Source of the DNA: an uncultured Candidatus Saccharibacteria bacterium
Lineage (GTDB): Bacteria; Patescibacteriota; Minisyncoccia; UBA6257; 2-01-FULL-56-20
Direction of reading: 5' to 3'
Length of the DNA: 64,000 nt
Assembly: GCA_965231155.1 (NCBI GenBank)
Contig: OZ246418.1
Coordinates: forward strand, 637,710-701,709
Part shown: in pieces, positions 2,996 through 38,726 of the stretch
How positions within the stretch are numbered: position 1 is the first letter of the stretch
Layout: every line of letters begins with the position of its first letter
The notes under the pieces: model-generated
The model's database searches: none
The model's input: only the letters and a program-made list of their open reading frames with translations
What the model was told of the DNA's origin: nothing
Translations under genes and position numbers: made by a program

Positions 2996-3004
2996 AGACT
3001 TATT

Positions 3005-3652
3005 ATGCAGGGCTTACTGGATAGAGTAATAGAGGCGATTACTCAGTATGGTGCCTGGGGTGTTTTTGTAATCGCTTTTTTAGAAGAGGTTATTGCGCCC
3101 ATTCCATCAACGCTCACCATTATGGCGGCTGGGTTTGTGTTGCTTAGCCCATATTCGACTTTTTGGGAGGCCCTTTTTCCAGCCATTCTCTATATTGCGA
3201 TTCCAACTTCTTTGGGAATGGTTTTAGGTGGATTAATTATTTATGCCCTAGGTTATTATGGAGGCAAAGCGATTATTGATCGGTGGGGGAAGTGGTTTGG
3301 ACTTTCCTGGAGTTCGGTAGAAAAAATGCAAAAGTATTTTGAGCGAGGGCATGGTGACGAAATGGTACTTGTTGGGCTGAGGGTTATTCCGATATTCCCT
3401 AACTCGCTTATATCCGGTGTGTGTGGAGTTCTAAGATATCCTTTAAAACCTTTTATTATCCTTAGTTTTCTGGGAGGTATTCCGCGGGCTTTGTTAATGG
3501 CCATGTTGGGTTGGTGGGCGGAAAATACATACAGAGTTTACGGCGAGGCGTTGTCTGGAGTGGAGAGTTGGGTGGTTGGTTTTGGTGGGTTAATCGGGGT
3601 GATTTTACTTATCTCTTTGATAGTCAAGAAGAAGAAAAATGAGAATTCCTAG
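3005..3652 (+). CDS. DedA/SNARE-associated (TVP38) family membrane protein.
   Basis: Polytopic membrane protein whose motif VFVIAFLEEVIAPIPS…GYYGG is typical of DedA. Confidence 0.65.
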   Translation: MQGLLDRVIEAITQYGAWGVFVIAFLEEVIAPIPSTLTIMAAGFVLLSPYSTFWEALFPAILYIAIPTSLGMVLGGLIIYALGYYGGKAIIDRWGKWFGLSWSSVEKMQKYFERGHGDEMVLVGLRVIPIFPNSLISGVCGVLRYPLKPFIILSFLGGIPRALLMAMLGWWAENTYRVYGEALSGVESWVVGFGGLIGVILLISLIVKKKKNENS

Positions 3653-5251: not shown

Positions 5252-5506
5252 ATGGAAAATAACAAAGGCAGTCTCATTACTATCGTTATCATCATCGTTG
5301 TAGTCTTGCTTGGAGTAGCGTTATGGTGGTCGCAGAATAGCAGTGTGCCAACCACACCTACGGAATCGAACACTTCTTCGACGACAATGATCCAGCAACA
5401 AGCCGCAGATCTCACCGCGACGATTCAGGCGGATCTCGATAGTATCGATACCGGTAGCACAACCCAGGACCTGGAGGTCATTGATTCAAATATCAATTCT
5501 CTGTAG
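5252..5506 (+). CDS. Small membrane-anchored Ser/Thr-rich protein of 84 aa. Hypothetical.
   Basis: One N-terminal TM helix (LITIVIIIVVVLLGVALWW) and a following terminator hairpin. Confidence 0.45.
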   Translation: MENNKGSLITIVIIIVVVLLGVALWWSQNSSVPTTPTESNTSSTTMIQQQAADLTATIQADLDSIDTGSTTQDLEVIDSNINSL

Positions 5507-5531
5507 TTTTCGGGAATACTTTAAGAATTGA

Positions 5532-5565
5532 AAAGCCTAGCAGATAATGCTAGGCTTTTCATATT
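5532..5565 (+). terminator. Rho-independent terminator.
   Basis: The hairpin AAGCCTAGCA-GATAAT-GCTAGGCTT is followed by TTTC. Confidence 0.6.
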
Positions 5566-5582
5566 GTTTTTTAATTTTCTAT

Positions 5583-6986
5583 ATGCCACACACAAAAAAA
5601 ATAAAAATAGTTGCCACTCTTGGACCGGCTAGTGATAACGAGGAGATGATTGAGAAGTTGGTACGTGCGGGAGTTAATATCTTCCGTCTGAACTTTTCTC
5701 ATAGTGAATGGGACTATTTCAGTACGGTTATTGATCGAATTCGTAGGGTAGAGAAGCGGGTTGGTTTCCCTTTGGGGATTATCGGAGATGTTCCGGGGCC
5801 AAAGATTCGTATTGGTAGTGTTGGCGAAGGGGTGGAGTTACGTCCTGGAAATCGAATTCGAATTACCGGACAGTCAATGATCGGTTCTCGAGAAATTATT
5901 TCAGTTAATTTTCCGGCAATCTTAAAACATATCAAGAAAGGTACAGAGATTTATCTTTCCGATGGTATGATCAAGATGGAGGCTGAGAAGATTGATAGCG
6001 AGGGAGTAATTGCCAAGGTGACGGGAGGAGGACTTCTTCGCTCTCGAATGGGTTTTTCAGCCCAAGGGATGGCTCTTGATGCGTTTGCATTGACGGCTCG
6101 AGATCGACTTTTCATTAAAAAATTAGTTTCAGCTGGTTTGGATATGGTTGCGATTTCATTTGTACAGACAGATAAAGATGTCTTGAGAGTTTCCCGACTT
6201 CTTCCGAAAAAGAATCGTCCGATGTTGGTGGTGAAGATTGAGACAGCAAAAGCAGTTGAGAATATTGAATCCATCTTGGCAGTGTCCGATGGGTTGATGA
6301 TTGCACGTGGCGACTTAGGTTTTTCGATTCCTTATCCAGAACTTCCGCACGTACAGAAAAAACTTATTGATTTGTGTCTGAAGAATGCCAAGCCAGTAAT
6401 TACCGCGACTCAGATGCTTGAGTCTATGATTCATAATCATTTTCCGACTCGTGCTGAAGTGAGTGACGTAGCGAATGCTATTTTGGATGGGACCGACGCT
6501 GTTATGCTCTCGGCCGAGACGGCTATTGGTGATTTTCCTGAGGAAACGGTTAAAACTATGACGCGGATTATCCAGGGTGCGGTTCCTCGAGTAATCGAAC
6601 GAGAATTTTCTGATAAGAAGACGACTGCTGACGCAGTGGCAGCTTCGGCAGTGAAAATTGCTCATCAGCTTGATGCCCGATTAATTGTGGTTTTCACCCA
6701 TAGTGGTGCTACGGCTCGTCGAATTGCTCGTCATCGTACTACCCAGCCGATTATTGCTCTATCTTCTGAAGAAAGAACAGTTCGAGAATTAATACTGAGT
6801 GGTAATGTGACTGCTCTGAAGGCGCATGTGAGTAAAGATGTTGCCCAGCTTATTATTCAGGCCAGAGAAGTAGCTCGAAATAATCCTATCGTCCGACTGA
6901 AGAAGGGGGAATCTTTCGTGATTAGTGCGGGTTTGCCGTTTGGTCAGAGTGGAGGAACAAATTTGGTTTTAATTGAGAAGGCTTAA
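5583..6986 (+). CDS. pyk: Pyruvate kinase. The start is taken at MPHTKK; the ORF track begins 12 codons upstream.
   Basis: KIVATLGPAS…NIFRLNFSHS and the general PK barrel/C-domain layout. Confidence 0.85.
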   Translation: MPHTKKIKIVATLGPASDNEEMIEKLVRAGVNIFRLNFSHSEWDYFSTVIDRIRRVEKRVGFPLGIIGDVPGPKIRIGSVGEGVELRPGNRIRITGQSMIGSREIISVNFPAILKHIKKGTEIYLSDGMIKMEAEKIDSEGVIAKVTGGGLLRSRMGFSAQGMALDAFALTARDRLFIKKLVSAGLDMVAISFVQTDKDVLRVSRLLPKKNRPMLVVKIETAKAVENIESILAVSDGLMIARGDLGFSIPYPELPHVQKKLIDLCLKNAKPVITATQMLESMIHNHFPTRAEVSDVANAILDGTDAVMLSAETAIGDFPEETVKTMTRIIQGAVPRVIEREFSDKKTTADAVAASAVKIAHQLDARLIVVFTHSGATARRIARHRTTQPIIALSSEERTVRELILSGNVTALKAHVSKDVAQLIIQAREVARNNPIVRLKKGESFVISAGLPFGQSGGTNLVLIEKA

Positions 6987-7003
6987 GAGACGCGAAGAAT
7001 CTT

Positions 7004-8194
7004 GTGTTTAAAATAGTTAAAGAATCGAATACATCAAATGCTCGTTTGGGTGTGATCGAGACACCTCATGGCATCGTGGAGACGCCTGCCTATGTCATCG
7101 TCGGTACTCATGCCGAGGTGCGGTGTCTGACGCCGGTTGATCTGGAGGCTTCTGAAACGCAGTTGATTATTGCAAATACTTATCACCTTTGGCGGGAGCT
7201 GGGGGATGAAGGATTAGCGAGCTATCCGGGACTTCATGCGGATATGCAGTGGCCTCATCCGATTATGACCGATTCCGGCGGGTTTCAGGTTTTTAGTTTG
7301 GGCGTTGCGCGAGAGGATGGCATGGGCAAGGTGAAAAAAGAGAGTGGTGATGTGATCGAGCCAGGAGAGAATTTAGTGCGGGTGACTGAGTCGGGAGTGT
7401 ATTTTATGGAGGATGGCGAGGAACAGTATCTTGATGCTGAGCTTTCGGTACGTATTCAGGAGCAACTCGGTGCGGATATTATCGTGGCTTTTGATGAACC
7501 GACTTCGCCAAATCATAGTTATGAATATACGAAGGAGTCTTTGCGACGAACGCACAAGTGGGCGGAGCGTTCGCTTGAGGCGCGGGTGACTAAGCAAATT
7601 ATGTATGGTGTGGTTCAGGGTGGTGCTTTTCCTGATTTACGAAAAGAAAGTGCTGAGTTTATTGGGCGTTTGCCTTTTGAAGGATTTGCGATTGGCGGAG
7701 CTTTTGGTGATTCATTTGGCAGTAAAAAAGATCAGATGATCACTGAGCTCGAAGCTTCGATTCCATTTTTGCCAAAAGATCGTCCGCGGCATCTTTTGGG
7801 TATTGGAAGAATTGAGGATTTATTTGTTGGGGTTGAGGCAGGGATCGATACATTCGACTGTGTGATTCCTACGCGTGAGGCTCGGCATGGTTCAGTCTGG
7901 ACCCGAGCTGGTCGGTTCGATCTCAAGAAATCAATATACGAAAATGATGACTCGCCAATTGATGAATTGTGTACGTGTCCCGTGTGTACTATTCATCAGA
8001 TCGATCGTCGTTCTTTGCGAAAGTTATTCAAAGATAAAGATCCTTTAGCTGGCCAGATGGCTACATTGCATAATGTGTATTTCTTTAATAATTTGATGTC
8101 CGAGATGCGCGCCGCAATAAAAAATGATGCCTGGGCTGAGCTTAAGAATCAGTATCTTTCTAAGAAGGATGGAGATCAGAGTCTCTCCGGCTAA
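7004..8194 (+). CDS. tgt: Queuine tRNA-ribosyltransferase.
   Basis: TPHGIVETPAYVIVGTHAEVR is present, and the zinc motif CTCPVCT lies near the C-terminus. Confidence 0.85.
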   Translation: MFKIVKESNTSNARLGVIETPHGIVETPAYVIVGTHAEVRCLTPVDLEASETQLIIANTYHLWRELGDEGLASYPGLHADMQWPHPIMTDSGGFQVFSLGVAREDGMGKVKKESGDVIEPGENLVRVTESGVYFMEDGEEQYLDAELSVRIQEQLGADIIVAFDEPTSPNHSYEYTKESLRRTHKWAERSLEARVTKQIMYGVVQGGAFPDLRKESAEFIGRLPFEGFAIGGAFGDSFGSKKDQMITELEASIPFLPKDRPRHLLGIGRIEDLFVGVEAGIDTFDCVIPTREARHGSVWTRAGRFDLKKSIYENDDSPIDELCTCPVCTIHQIDRRSLRKLFKDKDPLAGQMATLHNVYFFNNLMSEMRAAIKNDAWAELKNQYLSKKDGDQSLSG

Positions 8195-8999
8195 GGTTCG
8201 GCAGTTTCAACAGAAGATATGGGGATATTATGAAGCGCATGGTCGTGATATGCCGTGGCGCAACACGAGGAATCCTTATCGGATTTTTGTTTCTGAGATA
8301 ATGCTCCAACAGACACAGGTGGAGCGAGTGAAAGAAAAATATTTACTTTTCTTAAAATCATTTCCTAGTTTTGAAGTGTTAGCGGAAGCTTCGCTTCCTG
8401 AAGTACTTCGTGTCTGGCAGGGGTTGGGCTATAACCGGCGCGCTGCTTATCTCTTGCGATCAGCTCAGATTATAGTCAATGAGCATGACGCAAAGCTTCC
8501 ACGGGAAGAGGAGATGCTAATAACCCTGCCTGGTATTGGTCGAGGAACAGCCGGTTCAGTGTTGGCTTTCGCTTTTAATCTCCCGACAGTTTTTATCGAA
8601 ACGAATATTCGTCGAGTATTTATTCATGAGTTTTTTAAAGATCAGAAAAATATTACCGACGAAGATATTAGAGAGTTAGTGCGGAGAACCTTAGTTAAGG
8701 ATAATCCTCGAGAGTGGTATTACGCTCTTATGGACTATGGGTCTTTTCTCGCCAAAGAACTTGAGGGGAATCCTAATCGTGTGAGTCTGACATATCGGAA
8801 GCAAGCGACTTTCAAGGGATCGAGAAGGGAGGTTCGTGGAATCATTATTCGATTACTTTTAAAACGTGATATGTCCGTTCGGGATCTCATTCAACAGACC
8901 GAAAAAGATTCAGATCTCGTGTTTCAGGCACTTCGGGATTTAGAAAAAGAGAGAATTGTTCAGCAGAAAGGGGAGCTGTATGTATTGTCGGGAGAGTAG
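8169..8999 (+). CDS. HhH-GPD superfamily DNA glycosylase (MutY/EndoIII-like N-terminus) with no Fe-S cysteine cluster. Its start overlaps the tgt 3' end.
   Basis: The N-terminus VRQFQQKIWGYYEAHGRDMPWR…IFVSEIMLQQTQVERV matches the MutY-type helix-hairpin-helix fold, and LPGIGRGTAGSVLAF is the HhH-GPD loop. The protein contains no cysteines at all. Confidence 0.6.
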   Translation: MEIRVSPAKVRQFQQKIWGYYEAHGRDMPWRNTRNPYRIFVSEIMLQQTQVERVKEKYLLFLKSFPSFEVLAEASLPEVLRVWQGLGYNRRAAYLLRSAQIIVNEHDAKLPREEEMLITLPGIGRGTAGSVLAFAFNLPTVFIETNIRRVFIHEFFKDQKNITDEDIRELVRRTLVKDNPREWYYALMDYGSFLAKELEGNPNRVSLTYRKQATFKGSRREVRGIIIRLLLKRDMSVRDLIQQTEKDSDLVFQALRDLEKERIVQQKGELYVLSGE

Positions 9000-9032
9000 A
9001 AAATATGTGGAATATGTAGTACAAAAGAAGGT

Positions 9033-9782
9033 ATGACTAAGACTTCCTGGGAGAGAGTGGCGCCTTGGTATGATGAACTGCTTAAAGGGGATGACACCTA
9101 CCAGCTCAAGGTGATTTTGCCACAGCTTGAACGCTTGATGGAGATTAAGCGAGGCGAGGCTATTTTAGACCTGGCGTGTGGGCAGGGTTTTTTCTCAAAT
9201 CATTTCGAGAGGGCTGGTGGTGAGGTGATTGGCGTCGATGCTTCTCGACAGCTTATTGCTCGAGCCAAGGAGGCTTTTCGTCGAGTGAAATTTTATGTCG
9301 GTCAGGCTGACAAACTTTCTTTTATAAAAAATAAAACTGTCGATAAGGTAGCTATTATTTTAGCCATCCAGAACATTCAGGAAGTTGGTTCAGTTTTGAA
9401 GGAGTGCGCTCGTGTGATGAAGCCGGGAGGACGTTTGTTTATCGTGATGAATCATCCGAGCTTCCGTATTCCGAAGGCGAGCGGTTGGGGGTGGGATGAG
9501 GAGTATAAAACGCAGTATCGAAGAATCGATCAGTATCTGAGCGAGTCTAAGGCGAAGATCCAGATGCATCCTGGAGATGATCCGGATAGCCATACACTTT
9601 CTTTTCATCGTCCGTTACAGTTTTATTTTAAAACTTTGAAAAATAATGGTTTTTTAGTACGAAATATGGAGGAGTGGGAGTCGCATAAAAAGAGTCAGCC
9701 GGGGCCGAGGGCTAAGGCAGAAGATAAGGCACGCAAGGAGATTCCTCTTTTCCTTTTCCTTGAAGCGGTTAAATCAGAATAA
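9033..9782 (+). CDS. Class I SAM-dependent methyltransferase.
   Basis: SAM-binding motif I is ILDLACGQGFFS and motif post-I is VIGVDAS. The substrate is unknown. Confidence 0.65.
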   Translation: MTKTSWERVAPWYDELLKGDDTYQLKVILPQLERLMEIKRGEAILDLACGQGFFSNHFERAGGEVIGVDASRQLIARAKEAFRRVKFYVGQADKLSFIKNKTVDKVAIILAIQNIQEVGSVLKECARVMKPGGRLFIVMNHPSFRIPKASGWGWDEEYKTQYRRIDQYLSESKAKIQMHPGDDPDSHTLSFHRPLQFYFKTLKNNGFLVRNMEEWESHKKSQPGPRAKAEDKARKEIPLFLFLEAVKSE

Positions 9783-9784
9783 AT

Positions 9785-10492
9785 ATGAAAGTCCATAGAT
9801 TCATTGGGGGGTTCGATCTTGGCGATAAGAATATCGTCGTTCAGGATACGGAGTTGGTTCATCAGATAGTGAAGGTTTTGAAGTTACAGAAAGGGGAGGC
9901 GGTGATTCTAAGCGACGGTCAGGGCATCGAGCGTCTTGGAGAAATTAAAAATATTGGTCGTAATCAGGTGATGATTGAGTTCAAGGAAAAGATGCGGAAA
10001 AATAGAATGGAAGGACCTGAGGTAGTGTTGTATTTAGCCATCCTTAAGAAAGAGAATTTTGAGTTGGTGGCACAGAAGGCCACTGAGGTGGGTGTTTCTA
10101 CGATTGTGCCGATTATTACCGAACGAACAGTAAAATTAAACCTCCAAAGTGAACGGATAAAAAAGATTATCAAGGAGGCGTCCGAGCAGTCTGGTCGAAG
10201 CAGTGTTCCACAGTTATTACCCACTATTTCTTTTTTAGAATCATTAGGACAAATACCAAAAAACGAGGAGAGATGGTTTTTTGATATCGAGGGGGAGTCG
10301 TTGCAGTCAGTTTCTCGAACGAAAGAAATGAAGGGCAGGATTCATATTTTTATTGGTCCAGAAGGTGGTTGGAGTGAGGAGGAGAAACTGCAGGCAAAAA
10401 AGAAAGGTTGCAAGATGATTTCTATGGGTAGTTTAACTTTGCGTGGAGAGACGGCGGCCATTATTGGTTCTTATCTCGCGGTTAACCAGTAA
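9785..10492 (+). CDS. rsmE: 16S rRNA (uracil1498-N3)-methyltransferase RsmE.
   Basis: An N-terminal PUA-like region is followed by the C-terminal SPOUT motif IFIGPEGGWSEEE. Confidence 0.75.
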   Translation: MKVHRFIGGFDLGDKNIVVQDTELVHQIVKVLKLQKGEAVILSDGQGIERLGEIKNIGRNQVMIEFKEKMRKNRMEGPEVVLYLAILKKENFELVAQKATEVGVSTIVPIITERTVKLNLQSERIKKIIKEASEQSGRSSVPQLLPTISFLESLGQIPKNEERWFFDIEGESLQSVSRTKEMKGRIHIFIGPEGGWSEEEKLQAKKKGCKMISMGSLTLRGETAAIIGSYLAVNQ

Positions 10493-37487: not shown

Positions 37488-37495
37488 AATTTTTG

Positions 37496-37566
37496 CTGGG
37501 GGACAGGGAATCGAACCCCGATTCACGGCTTCAAAGGCCGCTGTCCTACCGTTAGACGATCCCCCA
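37496..37566 (-). tRNA. tRNA-Gln with anticodon UUG. CCA is not encoded.
   Basis: The minus strand reads TGGGGGATCGTCTAACGGTAGGACAGCGGCCTTTGAAGCCGTGAATCGGGGTTCGATTCCCTGTCCCCCAG. The 7-bp acceptor stem is UGGGGGA/UCCCCCA, the anticodon loop is CUUUGAA, and the T-loop is TTCGATT. Confidence 0.85.
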
Positions 37567-37804
37567 ATTTCATTTTCTCACTTAATAGCTTCTTTCCTTT
37601 TGGTGTTTTGTAGAATCTTTCTGTCCGAAAGGCTTCATATCTATCATCGAACATCTCACGATAGACAAGTTTAATTGGTAAGCGACCTTTCGTAGAACGT
37701 ACCCTTCCTTGACTATGGCTTCTTAGTCTTTCTTCAAGATTCGACGTACAACCAATATAGAGTTTACCATCTTTTTCTCCCTGGAGAACGTAGACAGAAT
37801 ACAT
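37523..37804 (-). CDS. Small GIY-YIG nuclease-family protein, YhbQ/UPF0213-like. The last 14 or so codons of the ORF read through the 5' half of tRNA-Gln, so the true 3' end is uncertain.
   Basis: MYSVYVLQGEKDGKLYIGCTSNLEERLRSHSQG…YKT matches the GIY-YIG core. The ORF continues through the tRNA sequence as LGDRLTVGQRPLKP* before reaching TGA. Confidence 0.6.
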   Translation of the reverse strand: MYSVYVLQGEKDGKLYIGCTSNLEERLRSHSQGRVRSTKGRLPIKLVYREMFDDRYEAFRTERFYKTPKGKKLLSEKMKLGDRLTVGQRPLKP

Positions 37805-37868
37805 AAAATTATTGTACCTACCGTTAGCCTCGCCCATAGGCTGGAGCCTTTAAGGGCTACGGCCGAGG

Positions 37869-37881
37869 GACGATCCCCCAA
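37869..37881. repeat. A 13-bp direct repeat, GACGATCCCCCAA, that duplicates the 5' end of tRNA-Gln. The other copy is at 37555-37567.
   Basis: An exact 13-nt match. An additional 11-nt match, CCTACCGTTAG (the D-loop segment), occurs at 37545-37555 and 37817-37827. Confidence 0.6.
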
Positions 37882-37957
37882 GTATGCGTACTACTCTATC
37901 ATAATTGTCATTTATCCGGCAATTACGTAAGGCTCTTTTTGTGCTATACTCTGGACT

Positions 37958-38449
37958 ATGAATTTTGCTAAAAAACTCTCTCAAATATTACCAATAGTAA
38001 CAGCTGAGGCCCACTGTGATGTGCCGTGTGGAGTCTATGAACCAACAACGGCAAAGATTGCCGCGAAAACCGTTGAAAAGATGGTTCTCCAGCTTCATGA
38101 GTTGAAGATGCCAGCTGACATGGCTGATGATCATTCGAGATTGGAGTATGCGAATGCCGTTTCTCGAAGGATTGCCACCAAGGAGAAGCATCTACAGATT
38201 TGCAAGGATGAACTCTCTTTGCTTTGGTCGGATTATTTCAAGCCAGAACATCTTGAGAAGTATCCAGAATTGCATACGATGTTCTGGAACGCCTTGAAAC
38301 TTTGTTCGAAGAACAAGCAAGCGGTGGATGGTGATCTGGCGAGAAAATTGACTGTGGCCGTTGATGAGATTGCGAAGATTTTTTATGAGACCAAAGGTGA
38401 TCCGAGTCGTTATGAAGCCTACCAGCAGATTACTGACAAACTTTTTTAA
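37958..38449 (+). CDS. sodN: Nickel-containing superoxide dismutase precursor.
   Basis: An N-terminal pro-peptide is followed by the Ni-hook motif HCDVPCGVYEP (His-Cys-x-x-Pro-Cys-Gly-x-Tyr) and then a four-helix bundle, about 14 kDa after cleavage. Confidence 0.8.
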   Translation: MNFAKKLSQILPIVTAEAHCDVPCGVYEPTTAKIAAKTVEKMVLQLHELKMPADMADDHSRLEYANAVSRRIATKEKHLQICKDELSLLWSDYFKPEHLEKYPELHTMFWNALKLCSKNKQAVDGDLARKLTVAVDEIAKIFYETKGDPSRYEAYQQITDKLF

Positions 38450-38726
38450 ACACCTTCTGTTCGTGGTCAAAGTGGAAGGGGAGAGTGCTTTCCCTGAGTT
38501 GATTCCGGGAAGATATTATCTGGCGAGTAGCCTCAAGAGACCACAAGTGGGGAGGTTTGTAGTTTTTTCGAATCCTTTGAATCACGGGCAGATTTTAGTG
38601 AAGAAGGTCCAAAGGTTTGAGGGTGATTCCCTCTGTGTCCAGGGGACTGTTTCTTGGGCAGTTTCTTCTCGTGAGATTGGTCGTATTCCTCTTCGATCTA
38701 CTCTTGGAGTTCTTCTAACGCATTAG
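38412..38726 (+). CDS. sodX: S26-family signal-peptidase-like NiSOD maturation protease. The start is uncertain; in-frame ATG 38412 and GTG 38463 both overlap or abut sodN.
   Basis: The SPase I box B-like motif VKVEGESAFPEL contains a Ser nucleophile. The box D-like motif is ILVKKVQRFEGDSL. The gene lies immediately downstream of sodN, as in described NiSOD operons. Confidence 0.65.
   Translation: MKPTSRLLTNFFKHLLFVVKVEGESAFPELIPGRYYLASSLKRPQVGRFVVFSNPLNHGQILVKKVQRFEGDSLCVQGTVSWAVSSREIGRIPLRSTLGVLLTH

Follow-up and report, generated by a model that had tools for sequence, protein, structure and literature searches.

A 64,000-nucleotide stretch of contig OZ246418.1 (positions 637,710 to 701,709), from an uncultured Candidatus Saccharibacteria bacterium, contains a single tRNA gene, tRNA-Gln(UUG). 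An open reading frame (ORF) for a GIY-YIG nuclease runs into this gene from its 5′ side, and upstream of the ORF part of the tRNA 5′ end occurs a second time. The question raised by this locus is how a nuclease gene came to lie between a complete tRNA and a partial copy of the same tRNA, and whether it arrived there as a mobile element. On balance, we favour the explanation, drawn from sequence comparisons, that an Ssn-like module of nuclease and hairpin, specialised for tRNA genes, was inserted in the D-arm region of tRNA-Gln(UUG). The whole stretch (64 kb) is referred to here as the window, and its features are read on the minus strand unless marked (+).

The functional tRNA copy lies at 37496..37566, where ARAGORN (37495-37566) and Rfam (RF00005, 37496-37566, 61.8 bits, full length) agree. 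The ORF abutting it (37523..37804; Pfam PF01541, E=7e-13) encodes a single-domain, Ssn-like GIY-YIG nuclease of 93 amino acids plus stop, with its ATG at 37804 (MYSVYVLQ...) and a TGA at 37523-37525. A 104-residue version in a mechanical ORF list starts from an ATG within the hairpin described next; homologues keep the 93-residue start instead. As read from the sequence, the 3′ end of the ORF overlaps the tRNA, the last 14 codons being tRNA nucleotides (nt) 1-41 and the 14 codons plus stop covering nt 1-44 (37523..37566). Proceeding upstream from the start codon, the ORF is preceded by a 12-nt spacer, tacaataatttt (37805..37816; 0-25 nt across homologous cassettes), by a relic of tRNA nt 12-22 from the D-loop and D-stem, CTAACGGTAGG (37817..37827, an exact 11-nt repeat of 37545-37555), by a conserved 41-nt GC-rich hairpin, termed H, of the form CCTCGGCCGTAG-17 nt-CTATGGGCGAGG (37828..37868; also written CCTCGGCCGTAG...CTAYGGGCGAGG), and by a relic of tRNA nt -1 to 12, TTGGGGGATCGTC (37869..37881), which sits on the ancestral upstream flank. 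The last of these is an exact 13-nt direct repeat that occurs exactly twice in the 64 kb (37555-37567 and 37869-37881), against a chance expectation of 0.13 with one mismatch allowed. Since C12 is common to both repeats, the tRNA sequence is interrupted by a net 42 nt. Further upstream is a promoter-like block, TTGCCG-18 nt-TAGAGT (37893..37922), formed by conserved columns in the alignment with a cassette-free relative; it scored below threshold, and was not called, in a consensus promoter scan of the window. This block probably drives the relic, hairpin, ORF and tRNA as a single transcript. Rfam recognised the tRNA and no further family in the window, and NCBIfam gave no specific family.

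The intact tRNA, the overlapping ORF and both exact repeats had been recognised in the original prediction, which also placed a 39-nt insertion between the two upstream pieces. The actual gap is 41 nt (37828-37868) and, judged from the related loci described below, this 'insertion' is a conserved hairpin belonging to the element, a point that the prediction overlooked. The tRNA origin of the flanking repeats stands, while a target-site duplication in the transposon sense is not among the claims that we can support.

The history of the locus is revealed by comparison with empty sites. When metagenomes were scanned with the 5′-terminal 47 nt of tRNA-Gln, 18 loci were obtained, and 15 of these tRNA-Gln genes with the same 5′ part have no nuclease gene upstream. 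Fourteen are truly empty, and the remaining one (L091) carries a decayed cassette of which only TTGGGGGAT, fused to the last ORF codons, is left. In L085, a 384-kb contig of the related genome used for the promoter alignment, the tRNA-Gln is identical to that of the window over 74 nt (100% identity) and there is no cassette. A nickel superoxide dismutase (Ni-SOD) gene, 74% identical to that of the window, lies divergently 86 nt from the tRNA in L085, and 77 nt from the relic in the window. A block TAATTGCCG..TGATAGAGTA..CGCA is common to both between Ni-SOD and the tRNA or relic. Window and L085 can be aligned without a break as far as tRNA nt 12, where the window continues with H and L085 with the remainder of the tRNA. 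The upstream relic, which aligns with the real tRNA 5′ end in L085, is therefore the original 5′ end of the tRNA gene. A second lineage, in which the order Dus-DnaX...tRNA-Gln is conserved, has two filled loci (L004 and L006) and two empty ones (L092 and L087); these agree in the upstream flank and, here too, part after tRNA nt 12. Because empty and filled alleles occur in two lineages, the conclusion that a 314-bp segment (37568..37881, with boundaries that are ambiguous within the repeats) was inserted, leaving a 5′ tRNA relic and an intact tRNA, is well supported by these alignments. The empty site minus this segment that the original prediction had called for is thus found in L085, and the second clade agrees. 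Of its proposal of a selfish mobile insertion, the insertion is borne out by the two kinds of allele, and the mechanism of movement is addressed below only by inference.

Two further observations concern these loci. In L004 an island (5273-10276) encoding an N6/N4 DNA methyltransferase, a DUF87 ATPase and a serine recombinase, which is not present in L006, lies directly 3′ of the tRNA-Gln that has the cassette on its 5′ side, and the tRNA therefore serves as an insertion point on both sides. Separately, three Logan contigs from different runs (L001-L003) that carry the adjacent VIT1 gene all end at window position 37549, inside the tRNA. We rejected these ends as a sign of population polymorphism: a co-occurring relative has the same tRNA 5′ part and a different T-stem (the in-branch lies 31 nt back), and because of this shared part the ends are an assembly effect that is uninformative on empty sites.

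The arrangement in the window is not confined to one genome. The window protein is identical to a database protein (P0001) from an 808-kb NCBI contig, and its database relatives are annotated as Kaiserbacteria, Parcubacteria and Patescibacteria. The proteins of the Logan contigs L004 and L006 are 67-70% identical to it and lie in other gene neighbourhoods with the same cassette layout, in the order tRNA nt 1-12, hairpin CCTCGGCCGTAG..CTACGGGCGAGG, tRNA nt 13-25, ATG, ORF and complete tRNA-Gln. A family scan with one genome per species gave 75 loci, among which the closest set comprises 45 genome loci (L007-L051; 51-68% identical). In 42 of these 45, a tRNA-Gln (CUG or UUG) or tRNA-Glu starts at most 50 nt from the ORF body, and in the remaining three a tRNA pseudo-copy lies between the ORF and the tRNA. 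More distant nuclease clades abut tRNA-Tyr, tRNA-Ser or tRNA-Phe, and the association follows D-arm sequence classes, with Gln and Glu sharing ATCGTCTAAYGGT and Tyr and Ser sharing another sequence. The ORF stop falls within the tRNA in 28 of 49 cassettes, mostly at the TAA of the D-loop TCTAAT, and the other stops lie 0-12 nt before the tRNA in nearly all cassettes. Many database homologues consequently end in translated tRNA (..HCGIV* or ..WGVV*), and some start with translated relic and hairpin. On this comparative evidence the cassette design is that of a widespread family, which the original prediction did not recognise, and a strong specificity of this module family for tRNA 5′ regions is well supported. 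Gln-CUG and Gln-UUG types are intermixed in the nuclease tree (nearest-neighbour agreement 26/48); we do not count this as proof of mobility since anticodon switching could explain it. A search for phage carriage in IMG/VR yielded no hairpin H and only distant GIY-YIG relatives.

Several loci of this family show additional features. In L007 (2925-3000 versus 3239-3310), L033 and L014 the acceptor sequence of the relic differs from that of the adjacent intact tRNA (GGGGGA versus GCCGGA in L007), and the relic and hairpin of L007 match those of the L004 cassette, which hints at a relic travelling with the cassette between tRNA-Gln genes. Locus L080 (3001-3637) has two tandem GIY-YIG genes before a tRNA-Ser, the first preceded by a tRNA-Ser 5′ relic with an alternative hairpin. 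Distant GIY-YIG genes in L053 and L056-L075 have no tRNA nearby, but conserved motifs (ACCCCCACACCATAACGAnnTTTGAATT-ATG, CACCCCACAAACTTT.. and CCCGCCAAAATTTT.., for example) immediately precede the ATG, in the ~30 nt ahead of position 3001 where the ORF begins; these may be the target or partner sequence of a sister clade.

Hairpin H accompanies the nuclease gene in nearly all of the closest set. It lies at most 160 nt upstream of 45 of the 47 homologous ORFs (L007-L051 together with L004 and L006), and in most cassettes the piece of tRNA nt 12-22 follows it. Of 63 instances of H, every one has C as its 5′ neighbour and all but one (62) have C as the 3′ neighbour; T occupies position -2 in 51. 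Set against the intact tRNA, each insertion of H duplicates one C after T, as at GTC^TAA in the D-stem. Solo insertions of H are also found in extra, full-length pseudo-copies of tRNA-Gln, both after C12 in the D-stem and, where it follows TTC, in the T-loop (L043, L044 and L052). H occurs as well in inverted orientation on the opposite side of GATCGTC (L009, L013, L015, L023, L036, L042 and L048), in tandem arrays (five copies in L012 and two in L040), nested in itself (L009, L026 and L029) and, in some cases, downstream of tRNAs. Copies of the tRNA that bear H are decaying, as in L009 where A7 is deleted and the T-loop mutated, and an intact tRNA is located near them wherever the contig permits. 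The non-template strand of the tRNA gene carries 51 of the 63 copies. No copy seen is more than a few hundred nt away from a GIY-YIG gene of this clade, and no H was found outside cassettes in the window (where it is present as a single copy), the 6-kb loci, 190 kb of control loci or IMG/VR. The Tyr/Ser-linked clades have another hairpin, with CTTGCCCCGCCAGGGCGGGGTGAAG in place of the D-loop TGG, and the Phe-linked clade has yet another. Since these clades carry hairpins of their own, nuclease clade and hairpin change together, and by analogy with known hairpin-binding nucleases H is presumed to be the recognition motif of the nuclease.

The protein itself is a member of the GIY-YIG superfamily by Pfam family (PF01541), fold and catalytic residues, and Y5, Y16, R26, H30 and E62 are invariant in the family. 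The AlphaFold model has pLDDT values above 89 for residues 1-80 and of 40-51 for the tRNA-encoded tail, which is predicted to lie outside the fold and to be disordered. The folded core makes up 78-80 of the 93 residues, with nothing beyond the catalytic domain. The best fold matches are UPF0213 protein BH0048, Slx1 and the catalytic domain of I-TevI, and the best sequence match among solved structures is BH0048 (E=1e-12). A DNA-binding domain is absent. The UPF0213/YhbQ proteins (BH0048, 1ZG2; EF2693, 1YWL; E. coli YhbQ) resemble the window protein in size and in an R-x-P-x-x-L segment, but the identity is only about 31% and YhbQ is annotated as a DNA-damage-response nuclease. We know of no hairpin partner or tRNA linkage for proteins of this group.

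A closer parallel in organisation is offered by the Ssn family (cd10448), the single-domain GIY-YIG nucleases of about 94 residues that include SsnA of Neisseria meningitidis (Chenal et al. 2025; PMC11893778). These bind a hairpin repeat, termed NTS or SRM (CGTC-ATTCCCGCG-N3-GCGGGAAT-C..), as single-stranded DNA only and in one orientation. SsnA cuts a few nt 5′ of the NTS, with the 3 nt before the palindrome governing cutting and the C right after the palindrome being the key base for binding, and it is inactive on RNA (PMC11893778). Ssn genes are flanked by their own motif, and Y6, Y17 and E64 are the residues that were mutated in that study (PMC11893778). The cassettes share with Ssn a single-domain GIY-YIG protein of about 80-95 residues in which the catalytic Tyr/Tyr/Glu are the same. 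In both, a GC-rich hairpin with ..TC on its 5′ side and C on its 3′ side stands about 10-25 nt ahead of the gene, on the coding strand, and hairpins can form arrays and be found in either orientation. They differ in that their hairpin has another sequence and is present in one or a few copies per locus rather than hundreds per genome, and in that they sit in tRNA genes with tRNA relics.

To compare the two families directly, an Ssn reference set was assembled by probing a protein database with a consensus sequence and keeping only real matches; the corresponding loci are flanked by near-canonical NTS matching the published pattern, and Y6, Y17 and E64 are invariant. The two families are homologous: an hhalign comparison of the window family with these reference proteins gave a probability of 98.8% (E=7e-17, 36% identity over 69 columns). 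At 93 residues, with no additional DNA-binding domain, the window protein agrees with the single-domain Ssn format of about 90-100 residues. In the Ssn loci L100-L106 the motif ends ~9 nt before the ATG and recurs 1-3 nt after the stop, and in the window, where the layout is equally tight, H is followed by 11-13 nt of relic, a short spacer and the ATG, with the tRNA 5′ end in the position of the downstream motif. By analogy, the nuclease is closer in logic to the hairpin-binding, single-strand-specific Ssn nucleases than to classical homing endonucleases, and it likely recognises H as the Ssn enzymes recognise their own motif. Among the reference loci, L104-L106 have a canonical Ssn gene (3001-3291 in L104) with one NTS-like motif per side; this gene belongs to a dcw-type cell-wall cluster, where it separates two Mur-ligase genes and precedes mraY. 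It looks inserted, as would fit mobile Ssn modules. The arms of the window tRNA themselves have the form 'ATC + hairpin' (D-arm, 37545-37566, GGGGGATC-GTCTAACGGTAGGAC; T-arm, 37497-37520, GTGAATC-GGGGTTCGATTCCCT), which is reminiscent of the TC-palindrome grammar seen in the motif of the nuclease and may be the reason why tRNA genes are chosen.

We propose the following course of events. The module would consist of a minimal, Ssn-related GIY-YIG nuclease (a core of about 78 residues) and its own hairpin H. On insertion, the ancestral tRNA 5′ end (nt -1 to 22) would have stayed by the old promoter, no longer functional and interrupted by H after C12, and because a complete tRNA would have been regenerated directly downstream of the nuclease ORF the host would keep its only tRNA-Gln. 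Genes for tRNAs are heavily transcribed, exposing the non-template strand, and it is on such exposed single-stranded DNA that the nuclease may bind H and nick a few nt to its 5′ side, as SsnA does with the NTS. Repair of the break could then copy the filled allele into DNA homologous to the tRNA and so spread the cassette, and repeated rounds of cutting and repair could yield the local tRNA duplications and hairpin arrays. The module would be transcribed from the tRNA promoter, and RNase P would free the tRNA from the tail of the ORF.

A number of points weigh against this proposal. A hydrolytic nuclease cannot itself join DNA, which leaves the copying step unaccounted for, and the adjacent intact tRNA keeps the presumed target, which fits an H-dependent enzyme but leaves the invasion of empty alleles unexplained. 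The window protein is about as close to UPF0213/YhbQ as to Ssn, and its family is without the Ssn C-terminal tail (KKWxRxWKIELIExxNPEW). The SRM pattern HGTCWYN(0-2)YYVSBRHN(0-5)WNVSBRGN(0-2)RNCYNB matches neither the window nor any of 426 kb of cassette loci (0 matches), whereas the same expression gives 2-9 matches around most control Ssn genes (one in the short locus L105). H, present once in the 64 kb, is not a genome-wide repeat as the NTS is. Folded as RNA or DNA, the relic with the hairpin does no better than shuffled sequence (z = -1.4, -0.2 and -1.35). In the near-invariant arms of H, wobble and A.C variants are equally numerous (25 of each), and no compensation specific to one strand is seen; apparent compensatory pairs proved to be spurious matches to inner palindromes and were discarded. 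Because folding energies and covariation are unremarkable, the case for the hairpin rests on its conservation.

The alternative that survives best, although we consider it unlikely, is a classical free-standing GIY-YIG homing endonuclease that cuts the double-stranded D-arm of an empty tRNA-Gln or tRNA-Glu gene and is copied by double-strand-break repair, the hairpin merely destroying the target within the relic. SegB, a free-standing GIY-YIG homing endonuclease in the tRNA cluster of phage T4, provides a precedent (PMC2330249), and like SegB and I-TevI the cassettes combine a GIY-YIG catalytic domain with a selfish gene beside tRNA genes and a presence/absence polymorphism. Filled and empty alleles at a conserved, essential gene and an association that follows D-arm sequence classes are what such an enzyme would produce. 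SegB and I-TevI, however, have a C-terminal DNA-binding domain, cut double-stranded DNA and lack a hairpin partner or tRNA 5′ duplication, while the cassette protein is a catalytic domain only. The relic is split by H, yet an unaltered tRNA 5′ region, and hence an uninterrupted putative target, lies directly downstream, right beside the gene. Moreover, the conservation of H, its invariant C flanks, its arrays and its solo insertion would be needless for a passive disruptor.

Less probable still is a domesticated, mostly vertically inherited module in which the hairpin acts at the RNA level, as a stabiliser of the 5′ untranslated region (UTR) or as a signal for processing or translation, and the nuclease serves the host in a role tied to expression of tRNA-Gln or tRNA-Glu. 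Many phyla-level lineages show purifying selection on the ORF, it is situated between the tRNA promoter and the tRNA with a stop that is often supplied by the tRNA, and the hairpin would form in RNA either way round, all of which would suit such a role. The cassette is nevertheless distributed sporadically, some close relatives having an empty site and one a decayed copy, and hairpins in the T-loops of dead tRNAs, in arrays and downstream of tRNAs exclude a 5′-UTR role in those positions. The inactivity of SsnA on RNA (PMC11893778) also argues against an RNA-level function.

We attach little probability to a third alternative, in which H is an independent miniature palindromic element (MITE- or REP-like) that is moved by another enzyme and lies near GIY-YIG genes because both use tRNA genes as a hotspot. 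Solo, nested, tandem and inverted copies do resemble a small mobile repeat, but all copies seen are close to the GIY-YIG gene of this one clade, the cousin nuclease clades have different hairpins, and the pairing of Ssn enzymes with their motif provides a precedent for a nuclease and hairpin that belong together (PMC11893778). The REP/BIME-RAYT and IS200/IS605 systems, the latter with transposition of single strands guided by hairpins, are similar to the cassettes in tying a small nuclease gene to a palindromic motif with presumed recognition as single-stranded DNA, and in having motifs that form arrays and occur in both orientations; they differ in using HUH (Y1) enzymes with covalent strand transfer and show neither homology nor tRNA specificity. 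Pfam matches at the locus are limited to GIY-YIG and T5orf172, with no HUH (Y1) transposase.

A remnant of an integrase island or an assembly artefact with att-like repeats, which the direct tRNA repeats flanking the insert and the recombinase island 3′ of the same tRNA in L004 might suggest, is effectively refuted by the comparative data, since the sole ORF in the 314 bp is the GIY-YIG gene and no tyrosine or serine recombinase is encoded, the repeats belong to the tRNA 5′ end and have a conserved hairpin splitting them, and the same structure recurs in more than 45 independent assemblies. Integrative elements that target tRNAs do share a duplicated tRNA segment and an intact tRNA with the cassettes, but they rely on tyrosine or serine recombinases, extend over kilobases and, as a rule, duplicate the 3′ part. 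A group I or archaeal-type (bulge-helix-bulge) tRNA intron was also considered and rejected, as an intact tRNA is always present and the hairpin-bearing copies are decaying.

More tentatively than the Ssn-like module at this one locus, we suggest that the cassettes could represent an undescribed class of mobile elements specific for tRNA genes, in which a hairpin-guided nuclease acting on single-stranded DNA invades, with its hairpin, the D-arm of tRNA-Gln and tRNA-Glu (Tyr, Ser and Phe for its cousins), redundant copies are inactivated by H after TC in the D-stem and T-loop, and one working tRNA is always carried or regenerated and thus cannot be lost by the host. In minimal genomes such as those of Patescibacteria each tRNA gene is usually unique. 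Full-text literature searches turned up no report on such GIY-YIG or Ssn cassettes, be it in tRNA genes or in Patescibacteria. Ssn nucleases were described only in 2025, in a paper that makes no mention of tRNA; its authors only speculated that motif-gene-motif units are domesticated mobile elements (PMC11893778). The cassette would link these nucleases to a tRNA-targeted mobile lifestyle and, if our proposal is true, would be the first natural evidence of mobile Ssn-type modules, with a defined target. Mobility becomes directly testable with filled and empty alleles resolved to the base, a target known to be the 5′ part of tRNA-Gln/Glu genes, copies in decay and tRNA duplicates killed by the hairpin, and the family offers new hairpin/enzyme pairs for single-strand DNA tools. 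It also accounts for recurrent oddities in the annotation of Patescibacteria, namely ORFs that run into tRNAs, tRNA 5′ fragments and tRNA pseudogenes with GC-rich inserts.

The Ni-SOD gene that flanks the cassette in the window (PF09055, E=2e-41) and an overlapping mechanical ORF after it (38361-38726) together take up 37958-38726 (+). The latter ORF might encode a signal-peptidase-like protease for Ni-SOD maturation; Ni-SOD and such a putative protease would make an oxidative-stress pair in a small Patescibacteria genome.

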